Positions 7,771 to 30,313 of a stretch of 64,000 nt of DNA are shown piece by piece. The notes under the pieces are model-generated. The model ran no database searches. It was not told where the DNA came from and saw only the letters and a program-made list of their open reading frames with translations. Each line of letters opens with the position of its first letter. Positions within the stretch are counted from its first letter, which is position 1. Made by a program: the position numbers and the translations under genes. The DNA is taken from assembly GCF_058153355.1 (NCBI RefSeq), contig NZ_CM177019.1, one strand, 5' to 3'.

Positions 7771-9357
7771 TTAATGCTCGCGAGTCTGGTGGAACTGAAC
7801 GTCCGGATAACGTTCCTGCGCCAGGCGCAGGTTGACCATGCTGGTAGCGATGTAAGCGAGGTTATCGCCGCCATCAAGCGCCAGTTGGCTTTCGTTCTTA
7901 CGCTTGAACTCTTCGAATTTCTTCGCGTCCGCACATTCTACCCAGCGTGCAGTGGCAACGTTGACTGACTCATACACTGCTTCAACGTTGTATTCGCTCT
8001 TCAGGCGCGCTACCACCACATCAAACTGCAGCACACCAACCGCACCAACGATCAGGTCGTTGTTGGAGATCGGACGGAACACCTGCACCGCGCCCTCTTC
8101 GGAAAGCTGTACCAGCCCTTTGAGCAGCTGTTTTTGCTTCAGCGGATCTTTCAGGCGGATACGACGGAACAGTTCCGGCGCAAAGTTCGGAATACCGGTG
8201 AACTTCATCATCTCCCCCTGGGTAAAGGTGTCGCCGATCTGAATAGTGCCGTGGTTGTGCAGACCAAGGATGTCGCCCGGATACGCTTCCTCAACATGCG
8301 AACGGTCGCCCGCCATAAAGGTCAGCGCGTCGGAGATCACCACATCTTTCGCGGTGCGCACCTGGCGCAGCTTCATGCCTTTTTCATATTTACCGGATAC
8401 CACGCGCATAAACGCCACGCGGTCGCGGTGTTTCGGGTCCATGTTGGCCTGAATTTTAAATACGAAGCCGGTAAATTTATCTTCGCTCGCCTCTACGGTA
8501 CGGGTATCAGTCTGACGCGGCATCGGCGCAGGTGCCCACTCTACCAGGCCATCCAGCATATGATCGACGCCGAAGTTACCCAGCGCAGTACCAAAGAACA
8601 CTGGAGTAATTTCGCCCGCAAGGAACAATTCTTTGTCGAACTCGTTAGACGCGCCTTTCACCAGTTCCAGTTCGTCACGCAGCTGCTGTGCCAGATCTTC
8701 ACCAACCGCAGCATCGAGATCCGGGTTATTCAGCCCTTTAACAATACGGACTTCCTGAATGGTGTGACCTTTACCGCTCTGATAGAGATAGGTTTCGTCT
8801 TTATAAAGGTGGTAAACGCCTTTAAACAGCTTGCCGCAGCCAATCGGCCAGGTGATCGGCGCACAGCCGATTTTCAGCTCGTTCTCAACTTCATCGAGCA
8901 GCTCCATCGGGTCGCGGATATCACGGTCAAGTTTGTTCATAAAGGTGAGGATCGGCGTGTCGCGCAGACGGGTAACTTCCATCAGCTTGCGGGTACGATC
9001 TTCAACACCTTTTGCGGCGTCGATAACCATCAGGCAGCAGTCCACCGCCGTCAGAGTACGATAGGTATCTTCCGAGAAGTCTTCGTGCCCCGGGGTGTCG
9101 AGCAGGTTAACCAGGCAGTCGTGATACGGAAACTGCATCACAGACGTAGTAATGGAGATCCCACGCTGCTTTTCCATCTCCATCCAGTCCGACTTAGCGT
9201 GCTGGTTGGAACCACGGCCTTTTACTGTACCGGCAGTCTGAATGGCCTGTCCGAACAGCAGCACCTTCTCGGTGATGGTCGTTTTACCGGCGTCCGGGTG
9301 AGAAATAATTGCAAAGGTTCTTCTTTTCGCTACCTCTGCGGCCAAAAGGCTTGTCAT
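7771..9357 (-). CDS. prfC: peptide chain release factor 3; the first ~21 codons are prophage-derived
   Basis: GTPase motifs [12 protein letters not shown] and DTPGH. ATG at 9357..9355 gives [21 protein letters not shown]. The alternative native 5' end is at 48849..48913 (see findings). Confidence 0.95.
9296..9309. repeat. attL core
   Basis: GGGTGAGAAATAAT, identical to 48849..48862. Imperfect extension ([T/G]GCAAA[G/A]G). Lies in prfC codons for AIISHP. Confidence 0.8.
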
Positions 9358-9377
9358 AATTGTTGTCTCTTTGATTA

Positions 9378-9423
9378 TGTACAATCATATGTACAAAGAA
9401 AAATTCATGCCGCTGATTGTACA
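9378..9423. repeat. TGTACA arm-type repeats (P' arm candidate)
   Basis: TGTACA at 9378, 9390 and 9418, within (A/T)TGTACA(A/T) contexts. The same motif recurs four times next to int at 48628..48684. Confidence 0.6.
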
Positions 9424-9511
9424 TTTTGGAGGTATCAGAGCATAGCAGAACATGATCAGTAGGTGTATTTGTAGCCAAAGAACATTTGTATATGCAGCAA
9501 TCTTTGCTCTA

Positions 9512-9563
9512 TTGACACTGTTTATTCATACAGTTAAAAATAATACTGTATAAAAACGCAGTA
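9512..9563 (+). promoter_or_regulatory. SOS promoter with two LexA boxes
   Basis: TTGACA (9512..9517), 17-nt spacer, TAAAAA. Box 1 is CACTGTTTATTCATACAGTT (9516..9535) and box 2 is TACTGTATAAAAACGCAGTA (9544..9563). Both fit CTG-N10-CAG. Confidence 0.8.
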
Positions 9564-9577
9564 GAGAGGGGTTTTTT

Positions 9578-9826
9578 ATGCGTATTGAGATCTGCATAGC
9601 CAAAGAGAAAATGACTAAAATGCCAAACGGTGCTGTGGATGCGTTAAAGGAAGAATTAACTCGGCGCATCAGTAAGCGTTATGACGATGTAGAAGTGATC
9701 GTAAAAGCCACCAGCAATGATGGGCTTTCTGTTACACGCACCGCAGATAAGGATTCTGCAAAAACATTTGTTCAGGAGACTCTGAAAGATACCTGGGAGT
9801 CTGCTGACGAGTGGTTTGTTCACTAA
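9578..9826 (+). CDS. DinI-like DNA-damage-inducible protein
   Basis: 82 aa. MRIEICIAK...[16 protein letters not shown] parallels DinI (MRIEVTIAK...ILQETWESADDWFV). Preceded by LexA boxes. Confidence 0.85.
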
Positions 9827-9856
9827 TTAACACGTAAAATCTGTAACGGCTGGAAA

Positions 9857-10060
9857 TCATTCAATACTCGCACTATCGAAAGTTCGCCAGCCAACCGCAG
9901 CACGTTCTTGCATACGACGTGTCTGCGGTTTTATATAATCCCAGCCGGTCCAGTTTCCAGACAACCAGCGTGTCACCTGCCGATAATGTCCTGTCAACGC
10001 ATTACGTTGTAGATCGATTTTCTGGTCATTTGTTGATACGCAAACATAGCCAATAAGCAT
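9857..10060 (-). pseudogene. Pin/Gin/Hin-family serine invertase remnant
   Basis: MLIGYVCVSTNDQKIDLQRNAL matches the Pin N-terminus. The conserved AGDTLVVWKLDRLG block is then encoded out of frame and the whole C-terminal half (HTH) is missing. About 204 bp remain versus about 560 bp for intact homologues. Confidence 0.8.
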
Positions 10061-10114
10061 GGTAGCTCCCTCTGACAAAAGCAGGAATGATGCCATTTAC
10101 TCGTTATTTCTGCA

Positions 10115-10140
10115 TTTTCATAAACATTGGTTTACAGGAA
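10115..10140 (-). promoter_or_regulatory. Din-type inversion crossover site (left)
   Basis: The reverse complement TTCCTGTAAACCAATGTTTATGAAAA shares its first 14 nt and the central AA with the site at 13190..13215. Resembles gix/hix. Confidence 0.8.
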
Positions 10141-11085
10141 GCGGTAAATCAGGCTTCTGGCGCATTACAGAAAAACCAGAACGGTGCAGATATTCCAGGA
10201 AAAGATACCTTCACCAAAAATATTGGTGCCTGTCGCGCATATAGCGCATGGGTGGATATTGGTGGCGATAGTCAGGTCTGGACAACTGCGCAATTTATTT
10301 CGTGGCTGGAGAGTCAGGGAGCATTTAACCATCCTTACTGGATGTGCAAAGGCTCATGGGCTTATGCAAATAATAAGGTCATTACAGATACAGGTTGCGG
10401 AAATATTTGTCTTGCAGGTGCTGTGGTGGAAGTTATTGGCACCCGCGGCGCAATGACCATACGCGTTACCACGCCGGGCACGTCCAGCGGCGGCGGAATC
10501 ACTAACGCTCAATTCACTTATATTAATCATGGTGATGCTTACGCTCCTGGCTGGCGACGAGACTACAACACGAAAAACCAGCAGCCTGCATTTGCTTTAG
10601 GGCAAACAGGAAATACCGTCGGAAACGACAAAGCCGTTGGCTGGAACTGGAATAGCGGGGTCTATAACGCAAATATTGGTGGCGCAACAACATTAATCCT
10701 CCACTTCAATATGAATACGGGGAGTTGCCCTGCCGTACAGTTCCGTGTGAATTACAGGAACGGCGGTATTTTTTATCGTTCAGCGCGTGATGGTTATGGA
10801 TTTGAGGCTGGCTGGTCAGAGTTTTACACCACAACACGCAAGCCATCAGCGAGAGATGTTGGCGCATATACGCAGGCAGAATGTAACTCAAGGTTTATTA
10901 CAGGTATTCGCCTTGGTGGTCTGTCATCTGTTCAGACATGGAATGGTCCCGGCTGGTCTGACAGGTCAGGTTATGTTGTTACCGGTTCCGTTAACTCAAA
11001 CAGAGATGAACTAATTGATACAACTCAGGCAAGGCCAGTTCAGTATTGCATTAATGGGACGTGGTATAACGCGGGGAGTATTTAA
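10141..11085 (+). CDS. silent alternative tail-fibre C-terminal cassette (no own start in this orientation)
   Basis: The track ORF 10087..11085 reads ...IGLQEAVNQASGALQKNQNG..., parallel to [19 protein letters not shown] of the expressed fibre. The C-terminus ...YCINGTWYNAGSI compares with ...[12 protein letters not shown]. Confidence 0.75.
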   Translation, partial: AVNQASGALQKNQNGADIPGKDTFTKNIGACRAYSAWVDIGGDSQVWTTAQFISWLESQGAFNHPYWMCKGSWAYANNKVITDTGCGNICLAGAVVEVIGTRGAMTIRVTTPGTSSGGGITNAQFTYINHGDAYAPGWRRDYNTKNQQPAFALGQTGNTVGNDKAVGWNWNSGVYNANIGGATTLILHFNMNTGSCPAVQFRVNYRNGGIFYRSARDGYGFEAGWSEFYTTTRKPSARDVGAYTQAECNSRFITGIRLGGLSSVQTWNGPGWSDRSGYVVTGSVNSNRDELIDTTQARPVQYCINGTWYNAGSI

Positions 11086-11087
11086 CG

Positions 11088-11621
11088 ATGATGCACTTAA
11101 AAAACATTTCTGCTGGTAATCCTGAAACAAAAGAGCAATACCAGCTAACAAAGCAATTTAACATCAAATGGCTTTATACAGAGGATGGGAAAAACTGGTA
11201 TGAGGAACAAAAGAACTTTCAGCCTGATACGTTGAAAATGGTCTATGACCACAACGGCGTTATTATTTGTATTGAAAAGGATGTTTCAGCAATTAATCCG
11301 GAAGGCGCAAGCGTCGTTGAGGTTCCTGATATTACAGCAAATCGCCGGGCTGATATTTCAGGTAAATGGATGTTCAAAGATGGCGTAGTGATAAAGCGAA
11401 CTTATACCGGGGAAGAGCAGAGGCAACAAGCGGAAAATGAAAAGCAAAGCCTGCTACAGCTCGTCAGGGATAAAACCCAGCTGTGGGACTCACAGCTACG
11501 GCTGGGCATTATTTCCGACGAGAATAAACAAAAATTAACCGAGTGGATGCTCTATGCGCAGAAGGTCGAATCCACAGACACCTCCAGCCTGCCAGTAACG
11601 TTTCCCGAACAACCAGAATGA
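11088..11621 (+). CDS. tail fibre assembly protein (Tfa), silent orientation
   Basis: MMHLKNISAGNPETKEQYQLTK...[17 protein letters not shown]. Paralogous to 11650..12177 and typical of the Tfa/gpU family. Confidence 0.85.
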   Translation: MMHLKNISAGNPETKEQYQLTKQFNIKWLYTEDGKNWYEEQKNFQPDTLKMVYDHNGVIICIEKDVSAINPEGASVVEVPDITANRRADISGKWMFKDGVVIKRTYTGEEQRQQAENEKQSLLQLVRDKTQLWDSQLRLGIISDENKQKLTEWMLYAQKVESTDTSSLPVTFPEQPE

Positions 11622-11624
11622 GAG

Positions 11625-11651
11625 AAGGCCCGATATCGGGCCTTAATTTTT
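11625..11651. terminator. palindromic hairpin between convergent tfa genes
   Basis: AAGGCCCGATATCGGGCCTT, a perfect 20-nt palindrome, followed by AATTTTT on the plus strand. Confidence 0.65.
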
Positions 11652-12177
11652 ACTCAGGTTTTTGTGGCCATTCGGGCTTTGCCGTATCCACACGGCTGAT
11701 CAGAACACTGTAGCGTTCCCATGCTTCCAGTCGTGTGCGTTCCTCGTCTGTTGCCATATTCAGCCTGACAGCGCGTTCCAGCGGCTGGATGACTGATTCA
11801 GCTTCGGAAAGTAACTCGGCCTTTTGTGATTCGGCCTGTTGCTGCTGTTCGTCTGCTGTATAAGTCCTCCTGACCACCGCTCCGTCCTTAAACATCCACT
11901 TCCCTGAATCATCGGCACGACGGTTAGCTGTTATATCGGGGATTTCAACGACGCTAAAACCTTCAGGATTAAGCGTGGAGGCATCTTTAGTGACGGCGAC
12001 AATAATATTATTTTCGTCGTAAACAATCTTTATTGTATCCGGCTGAAAGTTCTTCACTTCCTCATACCAGTTTTTTCCGTCCTCAGAGTAAAGCCAGATA
12101 ACTCCGTGTTTCTTTGTTAACTCATACTGTTCTGGTGTTTTAGCATTACCCGCTTTTATGTTCTTTAAGTGCATCAT
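11650..12177 (-). CDS. tail fibre assembly protein (Tfa), expressed orientation
   Basis: Start at [11 protein letters not shown] (12177), 2 nt after the fibre stop. The track ORF extends to 12210. Confidence 0.85.
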
Positions 12178-12178
12178 A

Positions 12179-13492
12179 TTAAATACTCGCCACATTATAC
12201 CAGGTGCCATTTATATACTTTTGCACTGGCCTGTAATGAACGCCTGCAATATTATCGGCAGAGTTTTTTCCGGTATCCTGTACGTTAATCCCCGTCAGTA
12301 CATAGCCTGACGGGCACTGGAAATTCCATGTTTGCCAGTTATTCACACCATAATATTGCTGTGAGCCAAGCCGGACATCTTTCACATATCTGGAGTCAAA
12401 ATTGCCATAATTGCCGGGAATAACTTGCGCACCACAAAGCCAGTTACCGTTATTATCCATGTACGCCTGACCATCGGTGCCATTGGCTGTCCTTGAGTTA
12501 TTAATCATGTAGATGCCAAATTGCTTATTCCCCAGCCCACCAATTACGAATTTACGGTCGGTATGGTCCTGGCGAAGCAATGCCTGCGCACCATCGTTGG
12601 ATACCGCATTACGGCCCAGAATAACATTCTGGTCACGCATATGAATCCACATGCCGGTACTACTGTTAATTGCAAAACGGTTTGCAAATATATCCCCTGT
12701 AACATCAAGACCATGCCCCATGCTTATCCGGCCAGTTCTGAGATTAAGCGTAAAGGGGCGTAGTGGCCCTATATCACCATTTTCCCCCTCATTCTCTCGT
12801 GTAGGGATGATATGCAGGCATTCTTCAGAACGACGAAAAATGGCACCAAAAGATGAATTAAATATCCTCAGTGCATTGACTGTCGATATTTTCACTTCAC
12901 TGCTGAAAAGGGCTTTCACAAGAACATACAGAGCATCCCATTTAAGATTCATCAGGTCTTTAACCCGGCCGCCAGTGAGGTGGTGTCTCCATTTGAAATA
13001 TTCATTACCGTTATCCGCCGTTTCAAACCACATGTAGGAATCGGTGTCTGCATCCGAATCATTTTTAAATCCAATCTTCGCCCAGTCAGTATTCCGAATC
13101 CAGGCAAGGATTGAGTCGTTTTCAAAAGTAAGTCCACCGGACAAGGTATCGCCATTTTTTTGCACAGCGTTCCTGGCCCGGTTTACCGTTTCCTGTAAAC
13201 CAAGGTTTTCGAGAGCCGTTTTCACCGTGCCATCCAATTTGATATCGCCAAACGGATTCTTGCGGCTTAACAGCAGCGCGCGAAGTGCGGTAATCAACTG
13301 ATCGTGCTGCCCTTTCTCCAGGCTGGCACCGGATGCCTCCACCACGCTGCAGAGTTCTTCCTGCAACATATCAAAGTAGTCATCATCCAGATCGGTGGCA
13401 GGTGTGCCGGTCTGGGGGTTACCACGGGTAAAACCGTTCTTACCCGCGCCGAACTTATCCTTCTGCGCGGTTTTAGTGTCTATGCGATGCAT
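12179..13492 (-). CDS. tail fibre protein (constant N-terminus plus currently fused variable C-terminus)
   Basis: 437 aa. The crossover site lies about 93-100 codons in. Immediately downstream of the baseplate genes. Confidence 0.85.
13190..13215 (+). promoter_or_regulatory. Din-type inversion crossover site (right), inside the fibre gene
   Basis: TTCCTGTAAACCAAGGTTTTCGAGAG, close to my recollection of gix (TTCCTGTAAACCGAGGTTTTGGATAA). Encodes ALENLGLQE on the minus strand. Confidence 0.8.
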
Positions 13493-13495
13493 GGA

Positions 13496-14080
13496 TTACT
13501 CCGGATATTTAAAAATTACGTAGGTATGCGACGGGCAGAGTTTGTTAAGCACACACTCGACAACGGTGTCGCCCCATATACGCAGCGCGGAATCACAGGG
13601 ATCGCCACATGTCATCCAGGTGGTGTTGGTGGTGGCTGGCATGTTGACCTGCCAGTAATACCGCCATTCCAGCGCATTCACCGCGTCAGTACAGGCTGAT
13701 GAGCAGGTGAACGTGCTTTTGTCGTATCGCGTGATGGTGGCATCTGGTCTGCCCAGGGCAGCAAGCTGTGCAAGATAAAAATCCTCGTTGATGCCGCCCG
13801 CCAGGTTAACCTTCGCATCCAGCCGTTGCTGACGCTGGCGAAGGGTCTGCGTTCCCGCCGGAATACATTCATCCGGCAGACCGCACAGACGCTCCCAGCG
13901 GTTTATCAGTTCGGTGGTGGTGCGCGGATCCAGCTCCCGCATCAGGGCATCCGCACGCTGATGAACACGGGTTAATGACGGTGCCGCACCGGCAATCGCC
14001 GGATCGCTGGCTGACCACGCCGGACCGGGCGGCAACAGTGCCGATAACAGGCGGATGTAATCATCGTTTGTCACGTCCAT
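13496..14080 (-). CDS. baseplate/tail protein, Mu gp48 / e14 YmfQ-like (DUF2313)
   Basis: 194 aa. Position between the baseplate J-like gene and the fibre gene. Resembles e14 YmfQ in size and context (from memory). Confidence 0.65.
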
Positions 14081-15129
14081 GAAATCGTCCCCAGCACCGC
14101 CAGTTCATTTTTTGCAATGGAGATATTGTCCGCCGGTGCAAGCAATTGATGGCTGTATTCCCCGTTCGCACCGGAAATCGCTTCACTGATACGCGACACC
14201 TTCAGTTCTCCCTGCGGATAACCATCACGCAGCAGGAACGAACGCAACTCCGCAGTAATGGCGGTTCGTATTTCCGGTGTGTCCGGCGTCACGCGGATAT
14301 GAAAATCCACCGTATGTGCCACCGGCCTGAACACATACAAATCAGAGCCTGCCACCGGGGCCAGTGGCCCGATATGTTGTCTTGCCGCCGTTTCCGTTGA
14401 TTCTTCCGGAATGGGATTAATCAGGTCACTGCTGGCAATCATCACACCGACAGTTCCCGTTCCCATCCAGTGACGGTATGTCCATGCGCGGGTAATGCCG
14501 GGCACTTCTTTAGCCCAGACGACATAGTCCCCGTCAGCCCCGCCCTGCGGCGTCCAGTAATACCGCTCAATGACGCGGGCGCGCCACGTTTCCAGCTCTT
14601 CAGTATCAAATCCGCCTGTCAGGGTGTCAGCCACACCGGAAGACGGCAGACCATTCACCGGCGTGACCAGGATTAATGCCGTACCGTCGTCAGCGTTACC
14701 GACCGCGCCTGCATTTGAGCAGGCGATCGGCACGCGCAGGACACCACCGGAGCTGGTTGCATCGGCAGTTGCAGTATACTGAACCAGGTCATCGCGCTGA
14801 ATAACACTCCCGGCGGTCACCTTCAGGCCATCGCTGACACCTTCCCAGCGCATATACCCGCTGGCAGCCGTGGCCCCCTTGCGCGGACACCGTTTCATCG
14901 CAGCATGTCGCGCCAGCCAGGACTCATCGCACAGGTCAGGCAGCATGTTCATTGCCAGATAATCGATGTACCCGTAAACCGTATGCAGCGCCGCCGCATA
15001 CACCTTTGCCCGCACGTCTTCATCCATGCGCCGGAGCGTGTCGCTGACGTCCAGCCTGGCGAATAAATCGTTACGGAGCATACTGATATTTTCTGCCAGC
15101 GTCGGGCGCTGAAATTCACTGTCTGCCAT
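14071..15129 (-). CDS. baseplate J-like protein (Mu gp47 / JayE-like)
   Basis: 352 aa. Overlapping gene junctions within the Mu-order tail cluster. Confidence 0.7.
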
Positions 15130-15544
15130 GCGTTATCGCACTCCACAGATCATCAAAAGAAATCATTACCGGTCCGTCACGACGCCAGAGAGTGATACTG
15201 TTACCCAGTTCATTAATCCCGGTGCGGCGGATATCCAGATCAATACGGGACACCACGCCGTCATCAATCATCCATTGCAGGCATTCGCGGATATACCCCC
15301 TTACCGTCTGCACCAGCTGATTGGTCAGTTTGCTGCGCTGAAGCAGCCACAGTCGGGAGCCGTAACGGTCATTCTGTACCGCAGGCCAGGTATCCCCCCA
15401 CCATCCCATCGGGACGTCGGCGTTGTCATCAGGCTCCGCCCGCCGCCAGGTAAACAGGGAAATCACCACGGCGCGGGTCAGCGGATCCAGCGGTGCGCTG
15501 GCGCAGGTGCGTTTACCGTTCACCGTCAGCCACAGTTCCATCAT
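15116..15544 (-). CDS. baseplate protein, Mu gp46-like
   Basis: 142 aa. Synteny gp45-gp46-gp47. Confidence 0.6.
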   Translation of the reverse strand: MMELWLTVNGKRTCASAPLDPLTRAVVISLFTWRRAEPDDNADVPMGWWGDTWPAVQNDRYGSRLWLLQRSKLTNQLVQTVRGYIRECLQWMIDDGVVSRIDLDIRRTGINELGNSITLWRRDGPVMISFDDLWSAITHGRQ

Positions 15545-16089
15545 GCCTCCATCGCTTTATCAGGTTTGTCGGTGTTACTGCCCTGACCGTTCTCTCTGTG
15601 ACGATGCCCGTTATAGGCAAGCCGCATCGCTGACATGGTGGTGCCGCCGGAGTCGCACAGGTCTTTCACCTGTCCTGTCACTTCCAGATCCATTTCAAAA
15701 CGTGCTTTAGGTGAATTGCGAAACGTGATCGTTTTACCTGCACCGTCCACCACGATCCCCTCCCGGGTCAGCGTCACGGACTGCCCCTGATCGTCATAGA
15801 CAGCCACCTCACCCGTCTGCAGCCCTTTCAGGCGGTAACGCCGGTCCGACACCGTAACAACCACCGCATGAGAACGGTCACCATCCGGAAACAACACCAC
15901 CGCTTCCGCACCGCTGTTTGCCCTTGCGGTAAAACCGTAAGGTTCAAGATGTTCAACCCCGGCTTTGGGTTCACCGGCAATCAGGGACACATCCACGGTC
16001 TGACATTTCGTGGCGGCACTGATGCTTTTCACCACGGCCCGCCCAATCAGCCCGAGGAGTTGTCGCTGTATGGTTTCAATCGCCCTCAT
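15541..16089 (-). CDS. baseplate assembly/spike protein, Mu gp45-like
   Basis: 182 aa. Synteny. 4-nt overlaps with neighbouring genes. Confidence 0.6.
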   Translation of the reverse strand: MRAIETIQRQLLGLIGRAVVKSISAATKCQTVDVSLIAGEPKAGVEHLEPYGFTARANSGAEAVVLFPDGDRSHAVVVTVSDRRYRLKGLQTGEVAVYDDQGQSVTLTREGIVVDGAGKTITFRNSPKARFEMDLEVTGQVKDLCDSGGTTMSAMRLAYNGHRHRENGQGSNTDKPDKAMEA

Positions 16090-17168
16090 CAGAACGGGTC
16101 CTCCTGTACTCTGGCTTTTTTCTTTTTCCGCGCGCCGGGATCTTCGGGTTCAGGCAGATAAGCATCAGGCGGGCCGACACGGATTTCCGTCAGGGTGCCG
16201 TTCTGGTCCTGAGTAAACGTGACTTCCGAAACAAGCAGTTCGGTATTGTCGAAACCACAGACCGGATCAAAGACAATCACCCGCTGGTTGGGCTGCCACA
16301 GCGTACCGTTACCCTGTCGCCAGCCCTGCACCACATAGGTGGTTTCATCCGTCCGCGCCGCCCGTTGTCGGGCTTCAAAGTCAGCACGCGCAATACAGCC
16401 TGCCCCCGTGGCCTGCCCTGTCTGCCTGATATACATCGGACGGTAACGGGCAATAAATGCGTCCTCTGTGCGGGCCCGCAGCGCGGTGGTGGTGGCCTCA
16501 CCGAAATCATCGTCGTTTCCGGCACGCTGCCCCGCCACCTGGTAAACTGAAAACCGCTCCCGGATACTCTTCTCCGTATCACAGGAAAGGATGTTTTCCC
16601 CAAGTACCAGCGCGGTATGTGCCCGCGTTGAGCCAATACCGCCAATCACCAGCCTGCCGTGCGGGTCGTCGTAAGCCAGTGCCTGCTGCTGACCGAGTAT
16701 TTTGTTGATTACCTCAATCACCGTTTCACCGTGATCAGGCTGGACATCAGGAATAACACCCGACGGCGCACCGTTGTTCACCACCTCAATGCCGAAAGGC
16801 GCAGCAAGCGCCTGCGCAATCTGTACCAGCGATCGTCCGTTAAACTGTGTCGGTTCGGCTGCACAGTCAATCAGGTCAGCGGTCAGACTGCGTCCGGCAA
16901 TGCCGGTGCTGACCGAACGGGCATCGTAACGAACGGGCGTCGCCTCCACCCAGCCGGTGATCACCAGCTCATCACCAATCAGCACCTCCACTTTTGAACC
17001 GTTTTTAATGCGCGGCTGAAGCGTGGTAATACCCTCATCTCCCGGCCACTGGCGGGTGATCTCCACACTGAAATCCCGCGCCAGCCGTTCAATACCGGCA
17101 CCGATGCGCACCGATGTCCAGCCATTCCACTCCCGGCCATTTACCCGTAGCGTGACATTGTCGTTCAT
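16089..17168 (-). CDS. baseplate hub protein, Mu gp44 (P)-like
   Basis: 359 aa. Synteny downstream of the DNA-circulation-like gene. Confidence 0.6.
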   Translation of the reverse strand: MNDNVTLRVNGREWNGWTSVRIGAGIERLARDFSVEITRQWPGDEGITTLQPRIKNGSKVEVLIGDELVITGWVEATPVRYDARSVSTGIAGRSLTADLIDCAAEPTQFNGRSLVQIAQALAAPFGIEVVNNGAPSGVIPDVQPDHGETVIEVINKILGQQQALAYDDPHGRLVIGGIGSTRAHTALVLGENILSCDTEKSIRERFSVYQVAGQRAGNDDDFGEATTTALRARTEDAFIARYRPMYIRQTGQATGAGCIARADFEARQRAARTDETTYVVQGWRQGNGTLWQPNQRVIVFDPVCGFDNTELLVSEVTFTQDQNGTLTEIRVGPPDAYLPEPEDPGARKKKKARVQEDPF

Positions 17169-18541
17169 TGCACTGGCACCTTCAGAGGGATCACCGGCAC
17201 AAAGCCGGGATGCGTAATGGCATTACGCCGGATAATGTCCGCGTCACGCGCCGCGTTATCAAACCAGGTCGCCGCCAGCACCAGCGCGGGTAAAACCTCA
17301 TCCGGCGGGCGCTGAATGATCCGAGCAGACTGTTCAAGGCGCGTGTTGATATCCGCATTCAGATCTGCTTTCACCCGGCGCAGCGCCAGAAACAGCGCAT
17401 CACTGGTTGTACGGGACAACTCCTTATCAATTGCCGTATTCAGTGTGTCGCGAATGTCAGTCAGTTCTTCCCACGTCGGCAGGTCAACCGTGTTTTTCAC
17501 CGCCGGTGCATTGTTCAGTGCCGGATGCGTGACGGAAGGCCAGCCAGTGCTCTGCGCAGGTGTTGTTGCCTGCCCCACTGCGGAATTCTGCATCACCGAG
17601 GAAGTTGTTGGCGCAGGCAATCGGGTGACGGCATACGCCGCTTCGCTGATTGCGGTCGTACGAAGGGTGCTGGCAACCACATTACGCTGCTGCGTAGCCG
17701 CGGCGGTGGTTTTACTGTCCGTTTTCCAGACGCCGCGCGGTTGCAGATCGCTGCCGAGGCTGACACCGGAAAGCGTTTTGATCATGGTGACCAAGTCGCT
17801 GGCGTTACCACAAAGGCGTTTCCCGGTACGCCACATTTTCTGCACCTGCTCAACGAAATTTTTGCCTGACGATGGTGGCGGCAGAAGTACCGAGATATCC
17901 CCCTGCAACAGCCTGGCAGCATCCGATACGGCAGAATCCACCACTTTCATCGCATCAGAAACATACCCAAGCATTGTGCTGGCATTACCAACGACGTCGT
18001 TCTGCACAAAATCCGCCACGCCATCGATACTGAAACCGCTGAAGCTGTCACTGATGCAGTCATCCAGTGCAGAACAGGATGACATCAGCGTCTGCGCCGT
18101 CGCCGCACCTGATGTGGGGTAAGAGAGTTCTCCTGCTTCGACAAACTTCAGGTCAAAGCGGACAATACGCCCTTCACTTTTCGATGTGCTGACCCGAACT
18201 TCCCCGTCAACACAGACCTTCAGCTCACCGTATGTCGGATGGACAAGCATGCCGGGACCGGGTTTATTCAGCGCGTCAATCAGGCGATCGCGCTGGTCAA
18301 AGCAGTCATCGCCCACCACATAAGCCGTGATAGACGGGCGGAAAGTGACTTTTCCCAGATCTTCGGTATAGGGCTTATCGCGGTTCGGATATTCGTGTGT
18401 TTCCACACGGCGACCGGTTCCCGCACTTTCTTCTTCAACCTTAAACGGCACGCCGCGAAATGACGCGTCCTGAAGTCTGTCACGCCAGCCTGAAGACGAC
18501 GAAAGTAATGAAGGTCGGGAGGGAAATGAGGATAAATCCAT
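17165..18541 (-). CDS. Mu gp43 (N, DNA circulation)-like tail protein
   Basis: 458 aa. Directly follows the tape measure gene as in Mu-like tails. Confidence 0.6.
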   Translation of the reverse strand: MDLSSFPSRPSLLSSSSGWRDRLQDASFRGVPFKVEEESAGTGRRVETHEYPNRDKPYTEDLGKVTFRPSITAYVVGDDCFDQRDRLIDALNKPGPGMLVHPTYGELKVCVDGEVRVSTSKSEGRIVRFDLKFVEAGELSYPTSGAATAQTLMSSCSALDDCISDSFSGFSIDGVADFVQNDVVGNASTMLGYVSDAMKVVDSAVSDAARLLQGDISVLLPPPSSGKNFVEQVQKMWRTGKRLCGNASDLVTMIKTLSGVSLGSDLQPRGVWKTDSKTTAAATQQRNVVASTLRTTAISEAAYAVTRLPAPTTSSVMQNSAVGQATTPAQSTGWPSVTHPALNNAPAVKNTVDLPTWEELTDIRDTLNTAIDKELSRTTSDALFLALRRVKADLNADINTRLEQSARIIQRPPDEVLPALVLAATWFDNAARDADIIRRNAITHPGFVPVIPLKVPVQ

Positions 18542-18565
18542 AGACTGACCTCAAAAAGGACTGCG

Positions 18566-20473
18566 TTATCGTGGAAAACGAAAAGGGGAATACCCCACAT
18601 CGTGCGTGATTTTCATCAGGGGATCGGCTTTGCCCGGTACATCAATTATCTTCATACCTGGCGGAGCATTCTCGAACGTGACTTTCAGCTCGCTGTGCTG
18701 TGTCATGGAAGAAGATGGATTCAACAGCGGAACATTGGGTTTGTACTGACTCAGGCTGGCCTGATACTGCTCGTACTCTTTACGATCAAAAAAAGGCGTC
18801 CAGTCTGAAGCCAGAAACAGCCCTTTATTATCCAGCCAGTTAACCGTATCTTCAGGAACAACACTTTCCAGAGTATCTTTAACCGGCTCATACATCAGGG
18901 TTCCCCAAAAACCATATACCCCGGTCTTCCCGATAAAGCCGCGGCCTTTCCCCATCAATCCCGTTTCTGCCGATACCTTCCCCAGCGTACGCATCTCTCT
19001 GGTCACTGCGGTAATGGATTTGGTAACGTCAGCAACCCATTTGGTTGCCATAAACAGGGCAATCGCTTTCAGAACAGTTTCCCATCCCCCCATCACCTGC
19101 GCCGTTTCATCCACCACGTGCCAGACTTTTTTTATGACAGGACCTACGGTTTCCCAGTTATCAATAATGAGGTAAGCGCCACCAACCAGAAGAGCAATCA
19201 GCCCCTTAGCAGGCGTCATATTCATCACACCGCCGAGAACTTTCATGATTCTGGACAAAGAGCCTGCAGCGGCCCCCACTGTCAGTAAAGCCAGACCGAT
19301 TTTAGCAATGGTCTTAACGAGCTCCGGGTTTTCACGGACAAACGTTCTCACTTCCTCAAGGAGCGGTTTTACCGCTTCAAGACCATCATTAACCTCAGGA
19401 AGAAACGTTTCCCCCAGAGTGGAAGAAATGGCATCAAGTTGATTTTGCAGAAGTAAAAGCTGGTTTTCCGTCGTCGCTGCCCTCGAAGCATATTCCTTCT
19501 GCATCGAACTGCCATACTGCTGGGAATCCGCAACCCGCCTGAAGTTGGTACGCAACAAATCAAGGTTAGTCAGCAGAGGTGCTATCGCGCCCAGAGACTC
19601 TTTCCCGAACAGGGCATTCAGCACAGCTGCCTGTTTTTCTTTAGGCACTTTAGCCATCGCATCCAGTACAGACAGCATGGTTCCCCGGGCATCTTTCTGC
19701 ATATCAGCAGCTAATTTCTTCGGATTGATCCGCAGAAAACGTAATGCCTGTTTCTGCGATTTTGTCGCGGAATTTCCCGCGGTCAGGGAAAGCATGAAGT
19801 TCTTGATCCCTGTGGCGGCAATTTCTGACTCCACGCCCATCCCGGCAATGGTTGCCCCCATTGCCGCGATTTCGCCGGAAGCCACACCTGCAACACCACC
19901 TAAAGGACCAATACGCGTAACAATATCGGAGATTTTCTTCGCATTCGCCGGGCCGGTATTACCAAGGTAGTTGATTTTGTCAGCCAGCCCGGCCACTTCA
20001 TCCTGCGTCATATTAAACGCAGTACGCCACTGGGCCATCATCTGCCCGGACTCTTCAGCCGTGGTATCAAAGGCCACGCCCATCTTCACCGCATCAGTGG
20101 CAAACTGCATCAGTTCATCACGTGCAATCCCGGCCTGACCGCCAGCCGCCACAATTTCCGCGATCCCGTCTGCAGACATGGGAAGCTCAGTAGACAAAGC
20201 GCGTACCTGCTCCGTCATGGCCTTAAACGCATCCGGCGTATCCAGACCGTCCACCACTTTGCGGACATCAGCCATCTTCGATTCAAGGGTGATGGCTGAT
20301 TTTACAGGGAGTGCCAGTGCCCCCATTATTGCAGTACCCGCCCCGGCAGCGCCCAGAGCAAGGCTGGAGACTTCTTTCTGAAACCCCTTAAGCTGACGCT
20401 GCATACCTTTAAGCGGGCCGGACAGCCTGTCAACGGCGGTGATGATGGCTTTCAGCTGAAAATTATCAGCCAT
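18566..20473 (-). CDS. tail tape measure protein
   Basis: 635 aa. Ala/Gly-rich helical protein with hydrophobic stretches. Preceded by the frameshifted chaperone pair. Confidence 0.85.
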   Translation of the reverse strand: MADNFQLKAIITAVDRLSGPLKGMQRQLKGFQKEVSSLALGAAGAGTAIMGALALPVKSAITLESKMADVRKVVDGLDTPDAFKAMTEQVRALSTELPMSADGIAEIVAAGGQAGIARDELMQFATDAVKMGVAFDTTAEESGQMMAQWRTAFNMTQDEVAGLADKINYLGNTGPANAKKISDIVTRIGPLGGVAGVASGEIAAMGATIAGMGVESEIAATGIKNFMLSLTAGNSATKSQKQALRFLRINPKKLAADMQKDARGTMLSVLDAMAKVPKEKQAAVLNALFGKESLGAIAPLLTNLDLLRTNFRRVADSQQYGSSMQKEYASRAATTENQLLLLQNQLDAISSTLGETFLPEVNDGLEAVKPLLEEVRTFVRENPELVKTIAKIGLALLTVGAAAGSLSRIMKVLGGVMNMTPAKGLIALLVGGAYLIIDNWETVGPVIKKVWHVVDETAQVMGGWETVLKAIALFMATKWVADVTKSITAVTREMRTLGKVSAETGLMGKGRGFIGKTGVYGFWGTLMYEPVKDTLESVVPEDTVNWLDNKGLFLASDWTPFFDRKEYEQYQASLSQYKPNVPLLNPSSSMTQHSELKVTFENAPPGMKIIDVPGKADPLMKITHDVGYSPFRFPR

Positions 20474-20881
20474 GCTTCATCTCCTCATTTATACGGACGG
20501 CCTCTGCCTCCAGATCAGCAAAGTGGGAAATAGCCGTCCGGCGAAGTTCAAGGGGGTTTAATTTCCAGAACCACGCGACATTGTAGAATCGCTTCCGGAG
20601 GTCTCTTCCGTCTCCAAGCCGGTAAAAAAACGCATTACAATCATGCCTGCCTTGAAAATATCCAGCTTCGTCATCTGCGCTGCAGACGAGCGCGGGATCC
20701 CGGCCAGAAGCGGGATATATTTCAGCGCCACCTGACTGTCCATTTTCATACCACCATCAGGCGAAACAGAGAAAGGGAACCCCAGCGCCTCAATCTCGTC
20801 ATACGTAGGCTCACGTATTTCCAGCACATGCAGTGTTTCTTTGTGGGCGATGATCGGTTTTTTAAGTACAAGCTCAATCAC
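20466..20881 (-). CDS. tail assembly chaperone pair (107-aa frame-0 product ends at 20558; -1 frameshift product ends at 20466)
   Basis: T_TTT_TTT heptamer (plus-strand A7 at 20624..20630) lies in X_XXY_YYZ register in codons R-F-F. The -1 frame stays open for 56 more codons and stops at a TGA overlapping the tape-measure ATG. Confidence 0.75.
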
Positions 20882-21234
20882 TGGTAATCCCCTTCTTCAC
20901 CGTGGAACTCAAGATCAACCGTGCCTTCTTCGGCATTATGGTTCGCTTCACCGTGCAGCCAGGCGGACGACAATACATAGACCTGACCGTTCGCCAGCTC
21001 GGCAGTGATGGTCATCTCATCAGAAGAGGTGATTTTGCTCACCGGAAAATTCTTCGGCACCTTGAAGGTCCCTTTGACATAAGGTGCACGGTGAGTTTCC
21101 TTGCGGTCCACTGAACCGTCCAGGCCGATGATGTCATCATTAACCGTCCTGTTCATGGGCACCTCAATGCCGCCGGTCAGCGATAGCTGCTGACCGTCAA
21201 TTTTGAAATAACAGGTTCCCCCGATACGGGCCAT
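20878..21234 (-). CDS. tail tube protein
   Basis: 118 aa. Lies between the sheath and chaperone genes. Confidence 0.7.
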   Translation of the reverse strand: MARIGGTCYFKIDGQQLSLTGGIEVPMNRTVNDDIIGLDGSVDRKETHRAPYVKGTFKVPKNFPVSKITSSDEMTITAELANGQVYVLSSAWLHGEANHNAEEGTVDLEFHGEEGDYQ

Positions 21235-21254
21235 TATGCAGACTCCTCTGAATA

Positions 21255-22730
21255 CTAAAGACGGAACTGGTTAACCACGGCAAAGACACGCAACTGGTTA
21301 ACATAGTCAGGCGGGAACAGCGTGTTCAGGCGGTTCGGATCGCTGGCATCACGCTCCACAACCAGGTACTGCTTAAACAGTTCGTAGTTTTCCACGATCC
21401 CCGCACGCTCAAGCTGACGGTAGGTTGCCAGCAGTTCCCCTTTGATCACCGCCGGGGTGACAATCGCCTGACCGGGACCAAAGCGGGTACCGTCACTGGC
21501 AAGCTTGTGACGCCCGTACTTACTGGTAATGACGGATTTCAGTTTGCGCAGTACATACGCGCTGGTATGCAGCGTCTCACTGTCGAGGTAGCTGTTATCC
21601 GCAACCCCGTAAGCGTTTTTCCTGTACGTGGTGACATCACGCTGAATGCGCAGTACCCCACTTTCGACATACGCCGTTGCCACGCCATGAGACAGCAGGG
21701 TCTGTTGCTCGGTCATCGTGAACCGTTTCCCCTTCGGTGCAGGCAGCATACCCACCAGCTCACCGGTCTGCGTGGGACGTGCCGGATCGTTGCGAATAAA
21801 CACCGCTGCGCGGGCGGTACGGCTTGCCGCCAGCTCGTCGGCTGGCGTCTGAGTGTCTTTTTCGTATCCCGCCAGGGTAATGTGCTGCTGGTTAAACTGG
21901 TCACCTGCGGTCACCAGTTCTGACAGCGTGCCGATCTTTGCCGTATACACATGACCATACAGCTGACGCGCATAGCTCCAGCGACCGCTGGTATCGTTCA
22001 TCTCGGTCACCAGCGTGTTAACGGAGGCCGTGTCGTTGAACGGCAAGCCAATATAATCAAACGGCTCATCCGCCATTGCAGCCACCGCGCCGGTGAGAAC
22101 CGGAGCGCCCGTTCCGGCGCTCCCCGTCGCCACGGCAATCTGTACGCCCGCTGGCAGCACTTCGCCCCCACCAAAGCCGTAGTAATTGAGGCTGACAGGA
22201 ATTTCATTCCCGCAAAGCCCCTTATGACGCGCGGTCAGTGTGACCACGCCTGCCGAAGATGAGGCCGTAAACGGCAGGGCCGGAACGGCATTGATGGCAT
22301 CTTTGATACTGCTGGCAATCGTCGTGACGTTATCGCCGTTGGTCACCGGTGCCTGCACGCGGGTACGTCCCACATAAACATTCACCGTGCCGGTTTCGGT
22401 TGCTGCTCCGGTCACCGTCAGCGTAACCGTTGCCGCCGCGCCTGTGGCTTCCGGAACGGCAATCACATACAGCTCGCCAAACGGGTCGGTCTGGCGATAA
22501 GCCTCGACCATACGCGCCAGCTGACTTCCCACACCACAAATCTGGCGTGCATAGTCTGCCGACGGCATCAGCACCAGACTGTTGGCAACAATCTCTGCAC
22601 CGTTATTGGCGTGACCAATCAGCAACGATGCCCCGCTGTCCTGTGCAGTATTCGCCGCCGAGTTATCCATTTCCGCATAAAACAGCGGAACCAGCGTATT
22701 CGACGGAATGGTGTTAAAGCTTATCGTCAT
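21255..22730 (-). CDS. contractile tail sheath protein
   Basis: 491 aa. Size and position typical of Mu gpL / P2 FI-type sheath. Confidence 0.8.
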   Translation of the reverse strand: MTISFNTIPSNTLVPLFYAEMDNSAANTAQDSGASLLIGHANNGAEIVANSLVLMPSADYARQICGVGSQLARMVEAYRQTDPFGELYVIAVPEATGAAATVTLTVTGAATETGTVNVYVGRTRVQAPVTNGDNVTTIASSIKDAINAVPALPFTASSSAGVVTLTARHKGLCGNEIPVSLNYYGFGGGEVLPAGVQIAVATGSAGTGAPVLTGAVAAMADEPFDYIGLPFNDTASVNTLVTEMNDTSGRWSYARQLYGHVYTAKIGTLSELVTAGDQFNQQHITLAGYEKDTQTPADELAASRTARAAVFIRNDPARPTQTGELVGMLPAPKGKRFTMTEQQTLLSHGVATAYVESGVLRIQRDVTTYRKNAYGVADNSYLDSETLHTSAYVLRKLKSVITSKYGRHKLASDGTRFGPGQAIVTPAVIKGELLATYRQLERAGIVENYELFKQYLVVERDASDPNRLNTLFPPDYVNQLRVFAVVNQFRL

Positions 22731-22884
22731 CGGTGTTCACCTTTTTATTCACGCGCCGGATATCACCCGCTGCTTCACGGCGCAGCCAGTAGTTGTTCTC
22801 GTCAACATTTCGCCCTTCGGTGGGCAAAAGGTCACCGCGGGCAGGGTCAGGCACTGACCGCCCTTTAACAGGTTTCACAAACAT
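22714..22884 (-). CDS. small tail-module protein (56 aa, DUF2635-like)
   Basis: ATG 22884. MFVKPVKGRSVPDPARGDLLPTEGRNVDENNYWLRREAAGDIRRV... Overlaps the sheath start. Below the ORF-track length cutoff. Confidence 0.5.
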   Translation of the reverse strand: MFVKPVKGRSVPDPARGDLLPTEGRNVDENNYWLRREAAGDIRRVNKKVNTDDDKL

Positions 22885-22892
22885 GAAGATTC

Positions 22893-23453
22893 TCAGGAAG
22901 GAAGGGTTATTTCGGTGTGATGTTCGATATCGCCGTCAGGCCCGTTACCGGGATCGAGATAATCAACATCAATCGCCAGCGTTCGCAGTTCATCCAGACT
23001 GTTCAGCTCATCCTGCTGGCGGGTATCGTCTTCGGTCAGCTCGCTGATGACCGAAAAATCGAACTGATAAATCAGCTCATGACGATTCAGATCCAGCAGC
23101 GTGCCGCCGTCATAGGTAATCGGGTTACCGCACGCTTCCGGGTTCCAGCCCAGCAGGGCCTTAAAGAGCATCTGCCGGACATCGTCCACCACATCATACG
23201 AGGCAAACTGACCGCGCTCATCACGCCCGTTACTCAGTATGACAACCACGGAGAAGCCCTCTTTCAGCTCCTGCCAGTAGTCGGTCTGGCTTTTGTTTTC
23301 TCCCGGAGAATCATCCCCCGGTACCACATATGCCGCCGGGAGTTTCAGCTTTCCGACCTCCGGCAGATTTTTGAACTGGGCCGCGCCTGCCACCCGGTTT
23401 TCAAAATACGGGCAGCGGGCACGCAGCGCAGCAATAACAGGCGTCAGTTTCAT
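22893..23453 (-). CDS. tail completion/terminator-like protein (Mu gp37/DUF1834-like)
   Basis: 186 aa. Position between the head-tail joining genes and the sheath. Confidence 0.5.
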   Translation of the reverse strand: MKLTPVIAALRARCPYFENRVAGAAQFKNLPEVGKLKLPAAYVVPGDDSPGENKSQTDYWQELKEGFSVVVILSNGRDERGQFASYDVVDDVRQMLFKALLGWNPEACGNPITYDGGTLLDLNRHELIYQFDFSVISELTEDDTRQQDELNSLDELRTLAIDVDYLDPGNGPDGDIEHHTEITLPS

Positions 23454-24001
23454 GTTTTTTTCCTTCTTACAGGACGTAATGACCGCTGTAACTCACGGGA
23501 CAGTAACTTTTGTGTCCAGTAACGACGCTGGTCGATGACATCAGCCATAAAGTTATTACGTGGTGCCAGCCGCCAGCGGGATGAATGCTGCTTTTTCTGG
23601 CGCTTATCCTTTTTGCTCATCCCGTATGCGGCATGACGCACACCGTAATACAGAAACGCCGGATAATACGCAGAACCTTCAGGAAAACGCCGGTTACCCT
23701 GCCCGTTTTTCTGGTTAGGGGAAATCCTGACCATCAGGCCAGAACGACGGGAGCTTTTACGGGGGACGTAATAACCTATAGAACGCGCAAGTCGTCCGGT
23801 CTGATAGCCGGGGTTTTCACCTGGAGCAGACCGACCACGTCGCATCACCAGCCGCCGGGCATCACGCATATAGACACGCCCGATTTGAACAAATGCCCTT
23901 CGGAGCCTGGCACGATTAAACTCCATCTCCTCCGGTTGTTTGAAATCAACGTGTAAAAATGCTGTCTGCTCCACTGCGTCCTCCCATTTGTTCTTCGGCA
24001 C
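23450..24001 (-). CDS. HK97 gp10-family head-tail joining protein (start uncertain)
   Basis: 183 aa, basic. Overlaps the upstream gene by 56 nt, so the internal start M26 (23926) is possible. Confidence 0.55.
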   Translation of the reverse strand: MPKNKWEDAVEQTAFLHVDFKQPEEMEFNRARLRRAFVQIGRVYMRDARRLVMRRGRSAPGENPGYQTGRLARSIGYYVPRKSSRRSGLMVRISPNQKNGQGNRRFPEGSAYYPAFLYYGVRHAAYGMSKKDKRQKKQHSSRWRLAPRNNFMADVIDQRRYWTQKLLSRELQRSLRPVRRKKT

Positions 24002-24356
24002 CCAGTTCCGTACACTCCAGCAGCAGAAAGCGCCGCGCCCCGTTCAGATCACGCTGACGTTTCACCCGGTACACACTGTCATCACAGACCACCTCATAAT
24101 CAGCAGTGATCCCCCGGCGGTAGCGAATGGTGATGTAATGGGTGATGGCGTCTCCGATCTGCGCGGTTTCCTGCCAGGTGGTGGCACTGGTCTGGATAAC
24201 CTTCGCCCATGCCCGGAACGCAACCGGGTATTGAGGCTCCACGCCAAAGTTATCCGCGGGCATATCCACCCGCTGGCGGATCAGGACGCGTTTATTCAGC
24301 TCGCCTGGGTCAGGCAGAATGTAGGTTGCGCTGGTCTGCGCCTGACGAATTTTCAT
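23946..24356 (-). CDS. head closure / head-tail adaptor protein
   Basis: 136 aa. Position after the gp6-like connector. Confidence 0.6.
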   Translation of the reverse strand: MKIRQAQTSATYILPDPGELNKRVLIRQRVDMPADNFGVEPQYPVAFRAWAKVIQTSATTWQETAQIGDAITHYITIRYRRGITADYEVVCDDSVYRVKRQRDLNGARRFLLLECTELGAEEQMGGRSGADSIFTR

Positions 24357-24676
24357 AGTGGTATAAGGCGATAAGGAGCAACCAACCAGTTAAAGCTCAT
24401 TGGCAACTCCATTTTCTCAACGTCTGTAACCGTTGAGCGGTTTTCGTAGAAATGGCTGACAAGTAGCAGGAGCGCCAGCTTCACATCATCAGATATCACA
24501 AGCCCATCAGGATCATCCGCAGGCCTGTCATCTGCGGTTGCATACAACGTACGGTTAAGGAAGTTTTCCGTCCGACTCTGAGCGGCCTTCCCAAGTAGTT
24601 CAAGCAACTCATCTTCATCAGAGAAATCATCATCCAGACGAAGCTGAAGCTTAATCTCTTCCATTTTTAACAGCAT
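24353..24676 (-). CDS. head-tail connector (gp6-like) protein
   Basis: Start MLLKMEEIKLQLRLDDDF at 24676 with AGGAGG upstream. The track ORF extends to 24721. Confidence 0.65.
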   Translation of the reverse strand: MLLKMEEIKLQLRLDDDFSDEDELLELLGKAAQSRTENFLNRTLYATADDRPADDPDGLVISDDVKLALLLLVSHFYENRSTVTDVEKMELPMSFNWLVAPYRLIPL

Positions 24677-24754
24677 AAAACCTCCTGTGCCCGCCAGAAC
24701 GCGGGCACAAAAAAACCGCATTACGCGGCGTGCTGTATTACGTAAAAAGACTAA

Positions 24755-25984: not shown

Positions 25985-25994
25985 GATGTTTCCT

Positions 25995-26597
25995 TTACGC
26001 GTTAAGAAGGGTCAGGACGCGTTCACGCGCCATACGTTGATTAATGGCTTTCTGTAGCGCGCCGCTGTTGCGCGCCTCCTGCCATGCTTTCATGGAGCGA
26101 ACAGCCGAGTCAGCCTCCTGATAGGCAGGATATGTCACAGGACTGACATCCAGCAGACGGGAAAAGCGGGTTATCTCGCGAATAACAACCCCGTCCTCAT
26201 CCTGATACCACTCCTCGCCGTCACGGGCGACACGGAAAGCAAAAGATGACTGGTTAATATCTCCACGTTGCATCGGGGCCAGCACCAGATCACGAATGGT
26301 CTGTGTCTCCGGAGCCTGGATGTCATAGCGTAATCCGCGCTCATCAACTGAAAGATTCAGCGTGCCTGCTGCACTACGCCCAAGAATAAAATTAGGATCG
26401 TGGTTAAACAGTGCGCGTACATCATCACCAAGCACATCGTCAAAAGCGCCGGGCCGGATGATTTCGCGGAATGAACCAAATATCAGCTCAGAACGACAGT
26501 CAAACACCGATCCATAACCGATAATGTGCGCAGGGTTATCGTCATGCCGCTCAGCACGCACCTCACCGCTGTAACAACGGATTTCACGGTCATTCAT
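25995..26597 (-). CDS. prohead protease, HK97 (S78) family
   Basis: Start MNDREIRCYSGEV at 26597 (GAGGGAAAAACC upstream), just after the portal stop. The track ORF extends to 26654. Confidence 0.8.
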   Translation of the reverse strand: MNDREIRCYSGEVRAERHDDNPAHIIGYGSVFDCRSELIFGSFREIIRPGAFDDVLGDDVRALFNHDPNFILGRSAAGTLNLSVDERGLRYDIQAPETQTIRDLVLAPMQRGDINQSSFAFRVARDGEEWYQDEDGVVIREITRFSRLLDVSPVTYPAYQEADSAVRSMKAWQEARNSGALQKAINQRMARERVLTLLNA

Positions 26598-30197: not shown

Positions 30198-30238
30198 TCC
30201 TGGTTAAATTTCATTTTTCGCGGGTATAAAAAAACGAT

Positions 30239-30287: not shown

Positions 30288-30313
30288 TCCCCTCAGACAG
30301 TTGAGAATTATTA

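Follow-up and report, generated by a model that had tools for sequence, protein, structure and literature searches.

In the window, a stretch of 64,000 nucleotides on contig NZ_CM177019.1 (RefSeq assembly GCF_058153355.1), the coding sequence of prfC is interrupted by a prophage, and the copy that continues into the body of RF3 begins with phage DNA. The best explanation, which we consider highly probable, is that a temperate phage integrated site-specifically in prfC and carries in its attP a prosthetic 5′ end that rebuilds the RF3 frame. Recombination of the phage into native prfC codons 18–22 would be the work of a tyrosine integrase that is homologous to IntSXT and has an arm-binding domain. 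The prosthetic end provides a start codon, seven unrelated codons, nine synonymously recoded ones (EVAKRRTFA) and then the 14-bp core, so that integration yields a complete RF3 frame of 528 residues at attR with changed first residues; the native promoter and the first 22 codons stay at attL as a dead-end stub before int. The coordinates of the features are given in Table 1.

Table 1. Features of the prophage, its junctions and the flanking host genes in the window
Feature	Position	Strand	Description
Chimeric prfC (RF3, 528 aa + stop)	7771..9357	-	Host-derived through the core, phage-derived 9310-9357; stop at 7771-7773
attR core copy	9296..9309		Native prfC codons I18-P22; minus strand reads ATT ATT TCT CAC CC
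Phage-supplied replacement 5′ coding end	9310..9357	-	ATG + 15 codons; the last 9 recode native ones synonymously, including tandem AGA-AGA
Prophage, 39,539 bp	9310..48848		SfV-like morphogenesis module and lambdoid early region
Phage P arm, surrogate prfC to dinI-like intergenic region	9358..9577		Repeats, LexA boxes, dinI promoter-like site
dinI promoter-like site, TTGACA-18-AAAAAT	9512-9541	+	Consensus match; LexA boxes overlap and follow
LexA box, CACTGTTTATTCATACAGTT	9516-9535		Predicted; 15/20 to consensus (CTG-N10-CAG)
LexA box, TACTGTATAAAAACGCAGTA	9544-9563		Predicted; 16/20 to consensus (CTG-N10-CAG)
dinI-like gene	9578..9826	+	Divergent from prfC; PGAP 'DinI-like family protein' for the E. 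coli JNU orthologue
Excisionase (xis)	45912..46106	+	phrog_1553, E 4e-36; convergent with int
Tyrosine integrase (int), 407 aa	47395..48618	-	Arm DNA-binding domain; transcription directed away from attL
Phage P′ arm	48619..48848		TGTACA-type repeats 48627-48633, 48657-48663, 48665-48672, 48677-48684; promoter-like matches ahead of int
Orphaned native prfC 5′ end	48839..48913	-	22 native codons, 2 phage codons (NN), stop; native part matches prophage-free E. coli
attL core copy	48849..48862		Second copy of the 14-bp repeat
Native prfC promoter-like site, TTGCCT-16-TAAAAT	48976..49003	-	PWM score 11.8, best of the region; now faces the stub and int
yjjG	49004..49681	-	Host gene upstream of native prfC; from ORF list and annotation of syntenic loci

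The junctions are marked by a 14-bp core (GGGTGAGAAATAAT) with two exact copies in the window, against 0.01 expected from shuffled sequences. An earlier note on this DNA had placed a prophage inside prfC between these two copies, and both the insertion and the core pair hold, as does everything else that it gave as seen in the sequence. The two prfC 5′ ends are identical across the core and diverged yet recognisable just 5′ of it; to judge by these junction sequences, the crossover falls inside the core, within native prfC codons 18–22. The record of a Stx2c phage (LC727876) annotates the identical 14 bp as 'duplication due to insertion', and in the neighbouring LC7278xx records of Stx1a and Stx2c phages the matching region carries the same feature.

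When the window junctions were joined in silico as a virtual excision, the product aligned over 2,378 nt without gaps to the E. coli locus in which prfC is uninterrupted, and the virtual attP junction (±25 nt) has an exact copy in phage cdtI. Excision through the core thus restores both attB and attP exactly. In the prophage-free E. coli strain Ec-U10, yjjG is followed directly by prfC, which there starts with MTLSPYLQ instead of MTSLLAAE, the start found at attR in the window; the latter is present in the circular genome of phage cdtI, where it is followed by the core, about 230 bp and then int. Because the attP of cdtI carries the MTSLLAAE end, Ec-U10 has the native one and virtual excision restores both, the MTSLLAAE end is phage DNA, as the earlier note had supposed for the copy fused to the gene. 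Its view that two alternative prfC 5′ ends lie 39.5 kb apart, with the copy on the yjjG side orphaned, agrees with the core-to-core distance of 39,553 bp and with the synteny of Ec-U10. The repeat and the two 5′ ends could also be ascribed to coincidence, to faulty assembly or to a duplication in the host that has nothing to do with phage integration. For this, only the short length of the core speaks; with so low an expected number for a 14-mer, with the same junctions in about 690 independent complete genomes, and with an attP that exists in free phage genomes and is exactly restored, as attB is, by virtual excision, we regard such an origin as extremely improbable and in effect refuted.

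At attR, the minus strand from 9357 reads into RF3, as had been noted earlier, and does so as a single ORF of 528 codons. Its product scores 1089.6 bits against TIGR00503, the prfC equivalog model (cut-off 466.95), with residues 6–528 aligned to model positions 5–527. The N-terminus has seven residues substituted and is one residue shorter than the native one, eight rather than nine residues preceding VAKRR. The phage-supplied segment itself has an identical copy in the attP of cdtI. Over the 27 nucleotides that encode EVAKRRTFA, the native and the phage copy differ at 8 positions, all of them synonymous (GTG>GTA, AAG>AAA, CGC>AGA twice, ACT>ACC, GCC>GCA), which accounts for the many silent differences seen before. 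Not one of 200,000 simulations with 8 random substitutions in these 27 nucleotides kept the peptide.

PGAP calls the chimeric gene an intact prfC, and the exact chimeric RF3 is found in at least 1000 contigs of a public collection, with RF3_ECOK1 as its UniRef name. Some public annotations place the start of the protein at an upstream in-frame TTG (9384) inside a TGTACA repeat, which leads to lengths of 537–538 residues. This TTG has no preceding Shine-Dalgarno sequence, and the start chosen by PGAP is the ATG at 9357.

The arrangement is already known, from Stx phages (2007) and from the SXT element, and the present case is a rediscovery. Ogura et al. 2007 (PMC2323221) described a Stx1 phage in prfC of an O103:H2 EHEC, with a changed RF3 N-terminus and loss of the native RBS and promoter; prfC expression in such lysogens is stated there as unknown, and prfC is listed as non-essential. 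Stx1a and Stx2c phages were found at prfC in CC119 by Nakamura et al. 2023 (PMC10132054). Bobay et al. 2013 (PMC3603311) counted prfC among the prophage-disrupted genes and mention prfC, lepA, integrase and prophage together.

The prophage shares its int-attP module with these and other prfC phages (the Stx1-O103 type, the LC7278xx phages of CC119, cdtI (NC_009514) and 2H10). Its Int is 99.0% identical to that of phage 2H10 and 97.3% to those of the Stx1a/Stx2c prfC phages, and its P arm with the surrogate end and dinI has 94.5–96.2% identity to known prfC phages over positions 9296–9900. Further, its insertion site between yjjG and the body of prfC is the one used by cdtI, 2H10 and the Stx1-O103 type. 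The prophage differs from the known prfC phages in pairing the module with an SfV-like contractile-tail morphogenesis region, and the slot beside dinI, which holds cdtABC in cdtI, is filled here by a pin remnant and a tail-fibre cassette with mirrored genes. The prophage has neither stx nor cdt genes.

Among complete E. coli genomes, 691 of 5,426 have an attR-type junction (prfC joined to a dinI-like gene) and 699 of the same 5,426 an attL-type junction (yjjG, stub, int), so that lysogen junctions occur in about 13%. In roughly one of eight complete E. coli genomes, including lysogens of Stx and Cdt phages and the RF3_ECOK1 strain, a phage-supplied RF3 end therefore replaces the native one. 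The same chimeric prfC passes as an ordinary gene in databases, yet as disrupted in one comparative study.

The morphogenesis half of the prophage, with its SfV-like contractile tail, is encoded on the minus strand from about 33.7 to 11.6 kb, toward attR and prfC. The early half is similar to that of phage 2H10 and of the Stx prfC phages, and the prophage also encodes a CI-like repressor. Close homologues of Int match PF13356, PF22022 and PF00589. An alignment of 18 Int sequences has R240, K267, R344, H366 and Y375 in every member and H341 in nearly every one; these residues would correspond to the catalytic core pattern R..K..HxxR..H..Y of tyrosine recombinases. Between the early and late regions lies a DNA methyltransferase of 350 residues (32637–33689, minus strand; phrog_67 / phrog_6025).

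The tail-fibre cassette (9857–12232) comprises an alternative fibre C-terminus (10087–11085, plus strand) and mirrored tail-fibre assembly genes (11088–11621, plus strand, and 11650–12210, minus strand), which form long imperfect inverted repeats. It adjoins the remnant of a DNA invertase (pin) of 79 codons (9857–10096, minus strand). In this layout the cassette resembles an invertible segment of the Mu G / e14 P type that is probably frozen, since the invertase is truncated.

The int-attP-dinI module is common to very different phages, namely the long-tailed Stx1a/Stx2c phages, cdtI, 2H10 and the SfV-like contractile-tail prophage here, and in the complete genomes of cdtI and 2H10 int, attP and dinI follow each other uninterrupted. 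In the window, TGTACA-type repeats flank the core on both arms; those of the P arm (9376–9384, 9388–9396, 9417–9424) all lie within 70 bp upstream of the surrogate ATG. We consider the repeats on both arms candidate arm-type sites of Int, consistent with the arm-type repeats that had been noted beside the surrogate end. The product of the dinI-like gene matches the DinI model NF007893 with an E-value of 3e-20 and 72.5 bits, which is below the curated cut-off of 111.

Relatives of Int were searched for in one genome per species. At 19 loci, an Int relative lies about 230–260 nt downstream of a prfC 5′ end that is cut right after TFAIISHP. Identity to Int at these loci is 98% in E. coli, 83% in Pantoea stewartii and 47–61% in the others; the hosts include E. 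coli, Pantoea, Serratia, Pseudomonas, Marinobacterium, Kangiella, Methylomonas and Methylobacter, further Methylibium, Rheinheimera, Halomonas, Variovorax, Microbulbifer and Burkholderiaceae. At these loci the N-terminal tail of native RF3 differs freely in length and sequence, whereas the motif at the crossover does not change at all. The elements thus target the place where a dispensable tail joins an invariant motif. In the window, the crossover lies at the boundary between the hypervariable N-terminal tail of RF3 and the invariant segment of the P-loop region, a position that offers both a target conserved across Proteobacteria and a substitution that is tolerated.

Viral contigs were found with a degenerate DNA pattern for the peptide of the prfC P-loop region. 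With the Int alignment as query, the matches among viral contigs were all E. coli prophage ends that are cut at int, which say nothing about distant attP sites. Of 28 viral contigs that reach the P-loop region of prfC, 11 carry an in-frame ATG that leads into the conserved prfC segment and is preceded, at no more than 150 nt, by repeats of the GTACA type; their N-terminal tails differ (MSNEINRRR, MNEKFINEINDRR, MSNQEFLNEINRRR, MKDLSFAQQVASRR, MTNSSIADQVKRRR, MSDIQQAHEVGLRR and one 13-residue tail). Several further contigs, for example L172, L179, L180, L189 and L191 (MTNREEIERRR), were left out of this count because they have no TGTACA arms and may represent native prfC beside unrelated elements. 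Neither a prfC- nor a lepA-type fragment was found upstream of int at loci whose Int is 30–33% identical, nor in Xenorhabdus, Photorhabdus, Morganella and most Acinetobacter clades.

A sister clade of integrases, 40–46% identical to Int (loci L033, L034, L035, L037, L038, L039, L047, L056), is associated with lepA, the gene for EF4. In this clade, a lepA 5′ end, orphaned or surrogate, breaks off after MKNIRNFSIIAHID and is found about 228 nt ahead of int. The lepA cut (FSIIAHID|) is at the G1-motif position paralogous to the prfC crossover, with the DNA sequence ATCATTGCTCACATCGAT in lepA and ATTATTTCTCACCC in prfC. These elements differ from the prfC phages in their target and in a surrogate peptide that does not deviate from the native one. 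TGTCCA-type arm repeats are located just upstream of the surrogate ATG, and the surrogate is synonymously recoded, with an AGA codon included, as is the prfC surrogate here. In the attP of Salmonella phage KK-2013 (L196, ~1270–1320), for instance, the lepA start is synonymously recoded (AGA AAT TTC TCC). A neighbor-joining tree, computed without branch support, nests the lepA clade among the prfC-targeting integrases.

A comparable system outside phages is the SXT/R391 group of conjugative elements, represented by the ICE of E. coli XH1815. At its attL, the host sequence ATTATTTCTCACCC is followed by TGATGCC, and from its attL and attR sequences the crossover of this ICE therefore lies in CACCC, inside the phage core. 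The ICE supplies MANQDFLNEINKRR as surrogate tail, which differs from the tail of this phage, and has GTGTACAAA repeats just upstream of the surrogate ATG, in the same place as the arm repeats of the phage. The two integrases are homologous, with 39% identity over their full length (E-value 2e-91). Since the SXT/R391 family is defined by nearly identical Int proteins, of about 99% (PMC2791158), the identity of 39% to IntSXT is below the level of that family. In both elements xis and int are convergent, but their order differs: SXT/R391 has attL-xis-int with int pointing toward attL, whereas the prophage has attL-int-orf-xis with int pointing away. Further, SXT/R391 is a conjugative element, whereas the element here is built from phage modules (SfV-like head and tail, lambdoid early region, CI-like repressor, excisionase); no tra or set genes (conjugation, SetR/SetCD) were seen in the prophage, and XH1815 has them. 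By these sequence comparisons, the phage works like SXT, with a homologous enzyme, and stands outside that ICE family.

Phages that replace the end of the gene they interrupt are well known from phage 21 and e14 in icd and from phages in tRNA genes, for which Campbell formulated the rule that the interrupted end is duplicated: attP copies this end and the gene stays functional. These elements replace the 3′ end, so that the host promoter and RBS are kept, whereas here the 5′ end is replaced together with the expression signals. Comparable, too, are dusA-specific elements such as IMEVchUSA3 (PMC8409611), which supply a new promoter and restore the ORF with an altered N-terminus; they have another target gene, however, and are mobilisable islands, not phages. 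For SXT, a passage in the same publication (PMC8409611) reports that insertion in prfC supplies a promoter and an N-terminus.

Because prfC is non-essential, the intact ORF of the chimera is by itself no proof of expression. A consensus scan of the prfC strand of the phage arm returned no σ70-like site with 9 or more of 12 matches, and a PWM scan of this strand, over the 280 nt of phage DNA that precede the replacement ATG, reached at most 7.6, compared to a best score of 9.6 ± 1.6 in shuffled sequences. With the same PWM, the native prfC site stands out (Table 1), and sites ahead of int in the P′ arm reach 10.7 and 9.7. On the prfC strand of the phage arm, nothing rises above background in these scans. 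The earlier note had described RF3 in this lysogen as a chimera expressed from prophage-end DNA; the chimera stands, and for its expression from that DNA neither scan produced a suitable site. The Shine-Dalgarno match at the replacement start is weak (AGAGA), and the tandem rare codons AGA-AGA could lower translation.

Surrogate prfC starts often have rare arginine codons in place of the CGC CGC of native E. coli prfC, for example AGA-AGA here (9319–9324, minus strand), CGA-AGG in SXT (L085, ~5170–5176), AGA-AGG-CGA in L173 and AGG-CGA-AGG in L187. These codons may reflect only the A+T-rich composition of mobile elements, or they may lower the translation of RF3.

These observations bear on the possibility that integration effectively inactivates prfC, the ORF remaining intact but, without the native promoter and RBS, being expressed too little, so that lysogens would be RF3-deficient. 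The phage arm has no recognisable promoter and the native promoter-like site is orphaned at attL, prfC was scored as disrupted by Bobay et al. 2013 (PMC3603311), and Ogura et al. 2007 (PMC2323221) left the expression of this non-essential gene as unknown. Nonetheless we find inactivation quite unlikely. All 8 of the 8 differences in the recoded segment are synonymous, an in-frame ATG and the conserved motif are present in every distinct attR or attP that we examined, including those of the lepA sister clade, and the junction with an intact prfC ORF is carried by about 13% of complete E. coli genomes. The promoter and N-terminus that the homologous SXT insertion supplies, according to the passage cited above, point the same way. 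The case for selection on the surrogate end to make RF3 rests chiefly on the conserved design and the synonymous-only divergence, although the divergence could partly stem from a 5′ end captured from the prfC of another host, rather than from selection on the phage. We infer that the chimeric gene is expressed and functional; functional restoration of prfC is the most likely reading, and we hold it to be probable.

Expression could also depend on the state of the phage. Here RF3 would be made by minus-strand read-through from the late operon or the pin remnant, or would respond to occupancy of the arm by Int, IHF or LexA, and would shift with the SOS response. The whole morphogenesis operon is directed at attR and prfC, and no terminator-like site was detected between 9250 and 10150, that is, in the attR arm between the late genes and prfC, so that read-through is conceivable. 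The LexA boxes and the TGTACA repeats are no more than 205 bp away from the ATG. The earlier note had the prfC end abut a LexA-regulated promoter, and two predicted LexA boxes indeed lie 160–205 bp upstream of the ATG; its link to prfC is not supported, as the promoter faces away. Because the boxes overlap the promoter of the dinI-like gene, which is transcribed away from prfC, an effect of LexA on RF3 would be speculation. Moreover, a stable lysogen does not express its late operon; RF3 would then be missing most of the time, at odds with the signs that the surrogate end is under selection. Phage-conditional expression of RF3 thus seems unlikely to us as compared to functional restoration.

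At the other junction, the minus strand from 48913 was confirmed by translation to contain a short frame that ends in NN and a stop. The native prfC promoter-like site now faces this 24-codon stub and int, and a terminator scan between the two found none. Since no terminator is predicted there, the host promoter may add to the transcription of int in the prophage, and read-through from the native prfC promoter into int would be possible given this layout. A promoter swap, in which the int promoter of the phage would drive prfC once integrated, was also considered. It was rejected as the principal model, since the P′ arm, where the better promoter-like matches sit, stays with int whether or not the phage is integrated.

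RF3 has a part in the quality control of translation and recycles class-I release factors. Given the lack of a recognisable promoter, the weak RBS and the tandem rare AGA codons, the level of RF3 may differ in prfC lysogens. Extending this, one may speculate that RF3 level is altered or controlled by the element in about 13% of E. coli, the prfC lysogens, and that the integrase group moved between the paralogous P-loop-proximal sites of prfC and lepA, each time with a synonymously recoded prosthetic 5′ end; we consider this unlikely as it stands. If it were true, candidate controls of RF3 would be Int and IHF on the TGTACA arm sites, the SOS response and read-through from the late operon, and stop-codon fidelity would be a hidden trait of lysogenic conversion. 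The case of the prfC lysogens shows why such a site is favored: at the crossover, a dispensable N-terminal tail gives way to an invariant coding segment.
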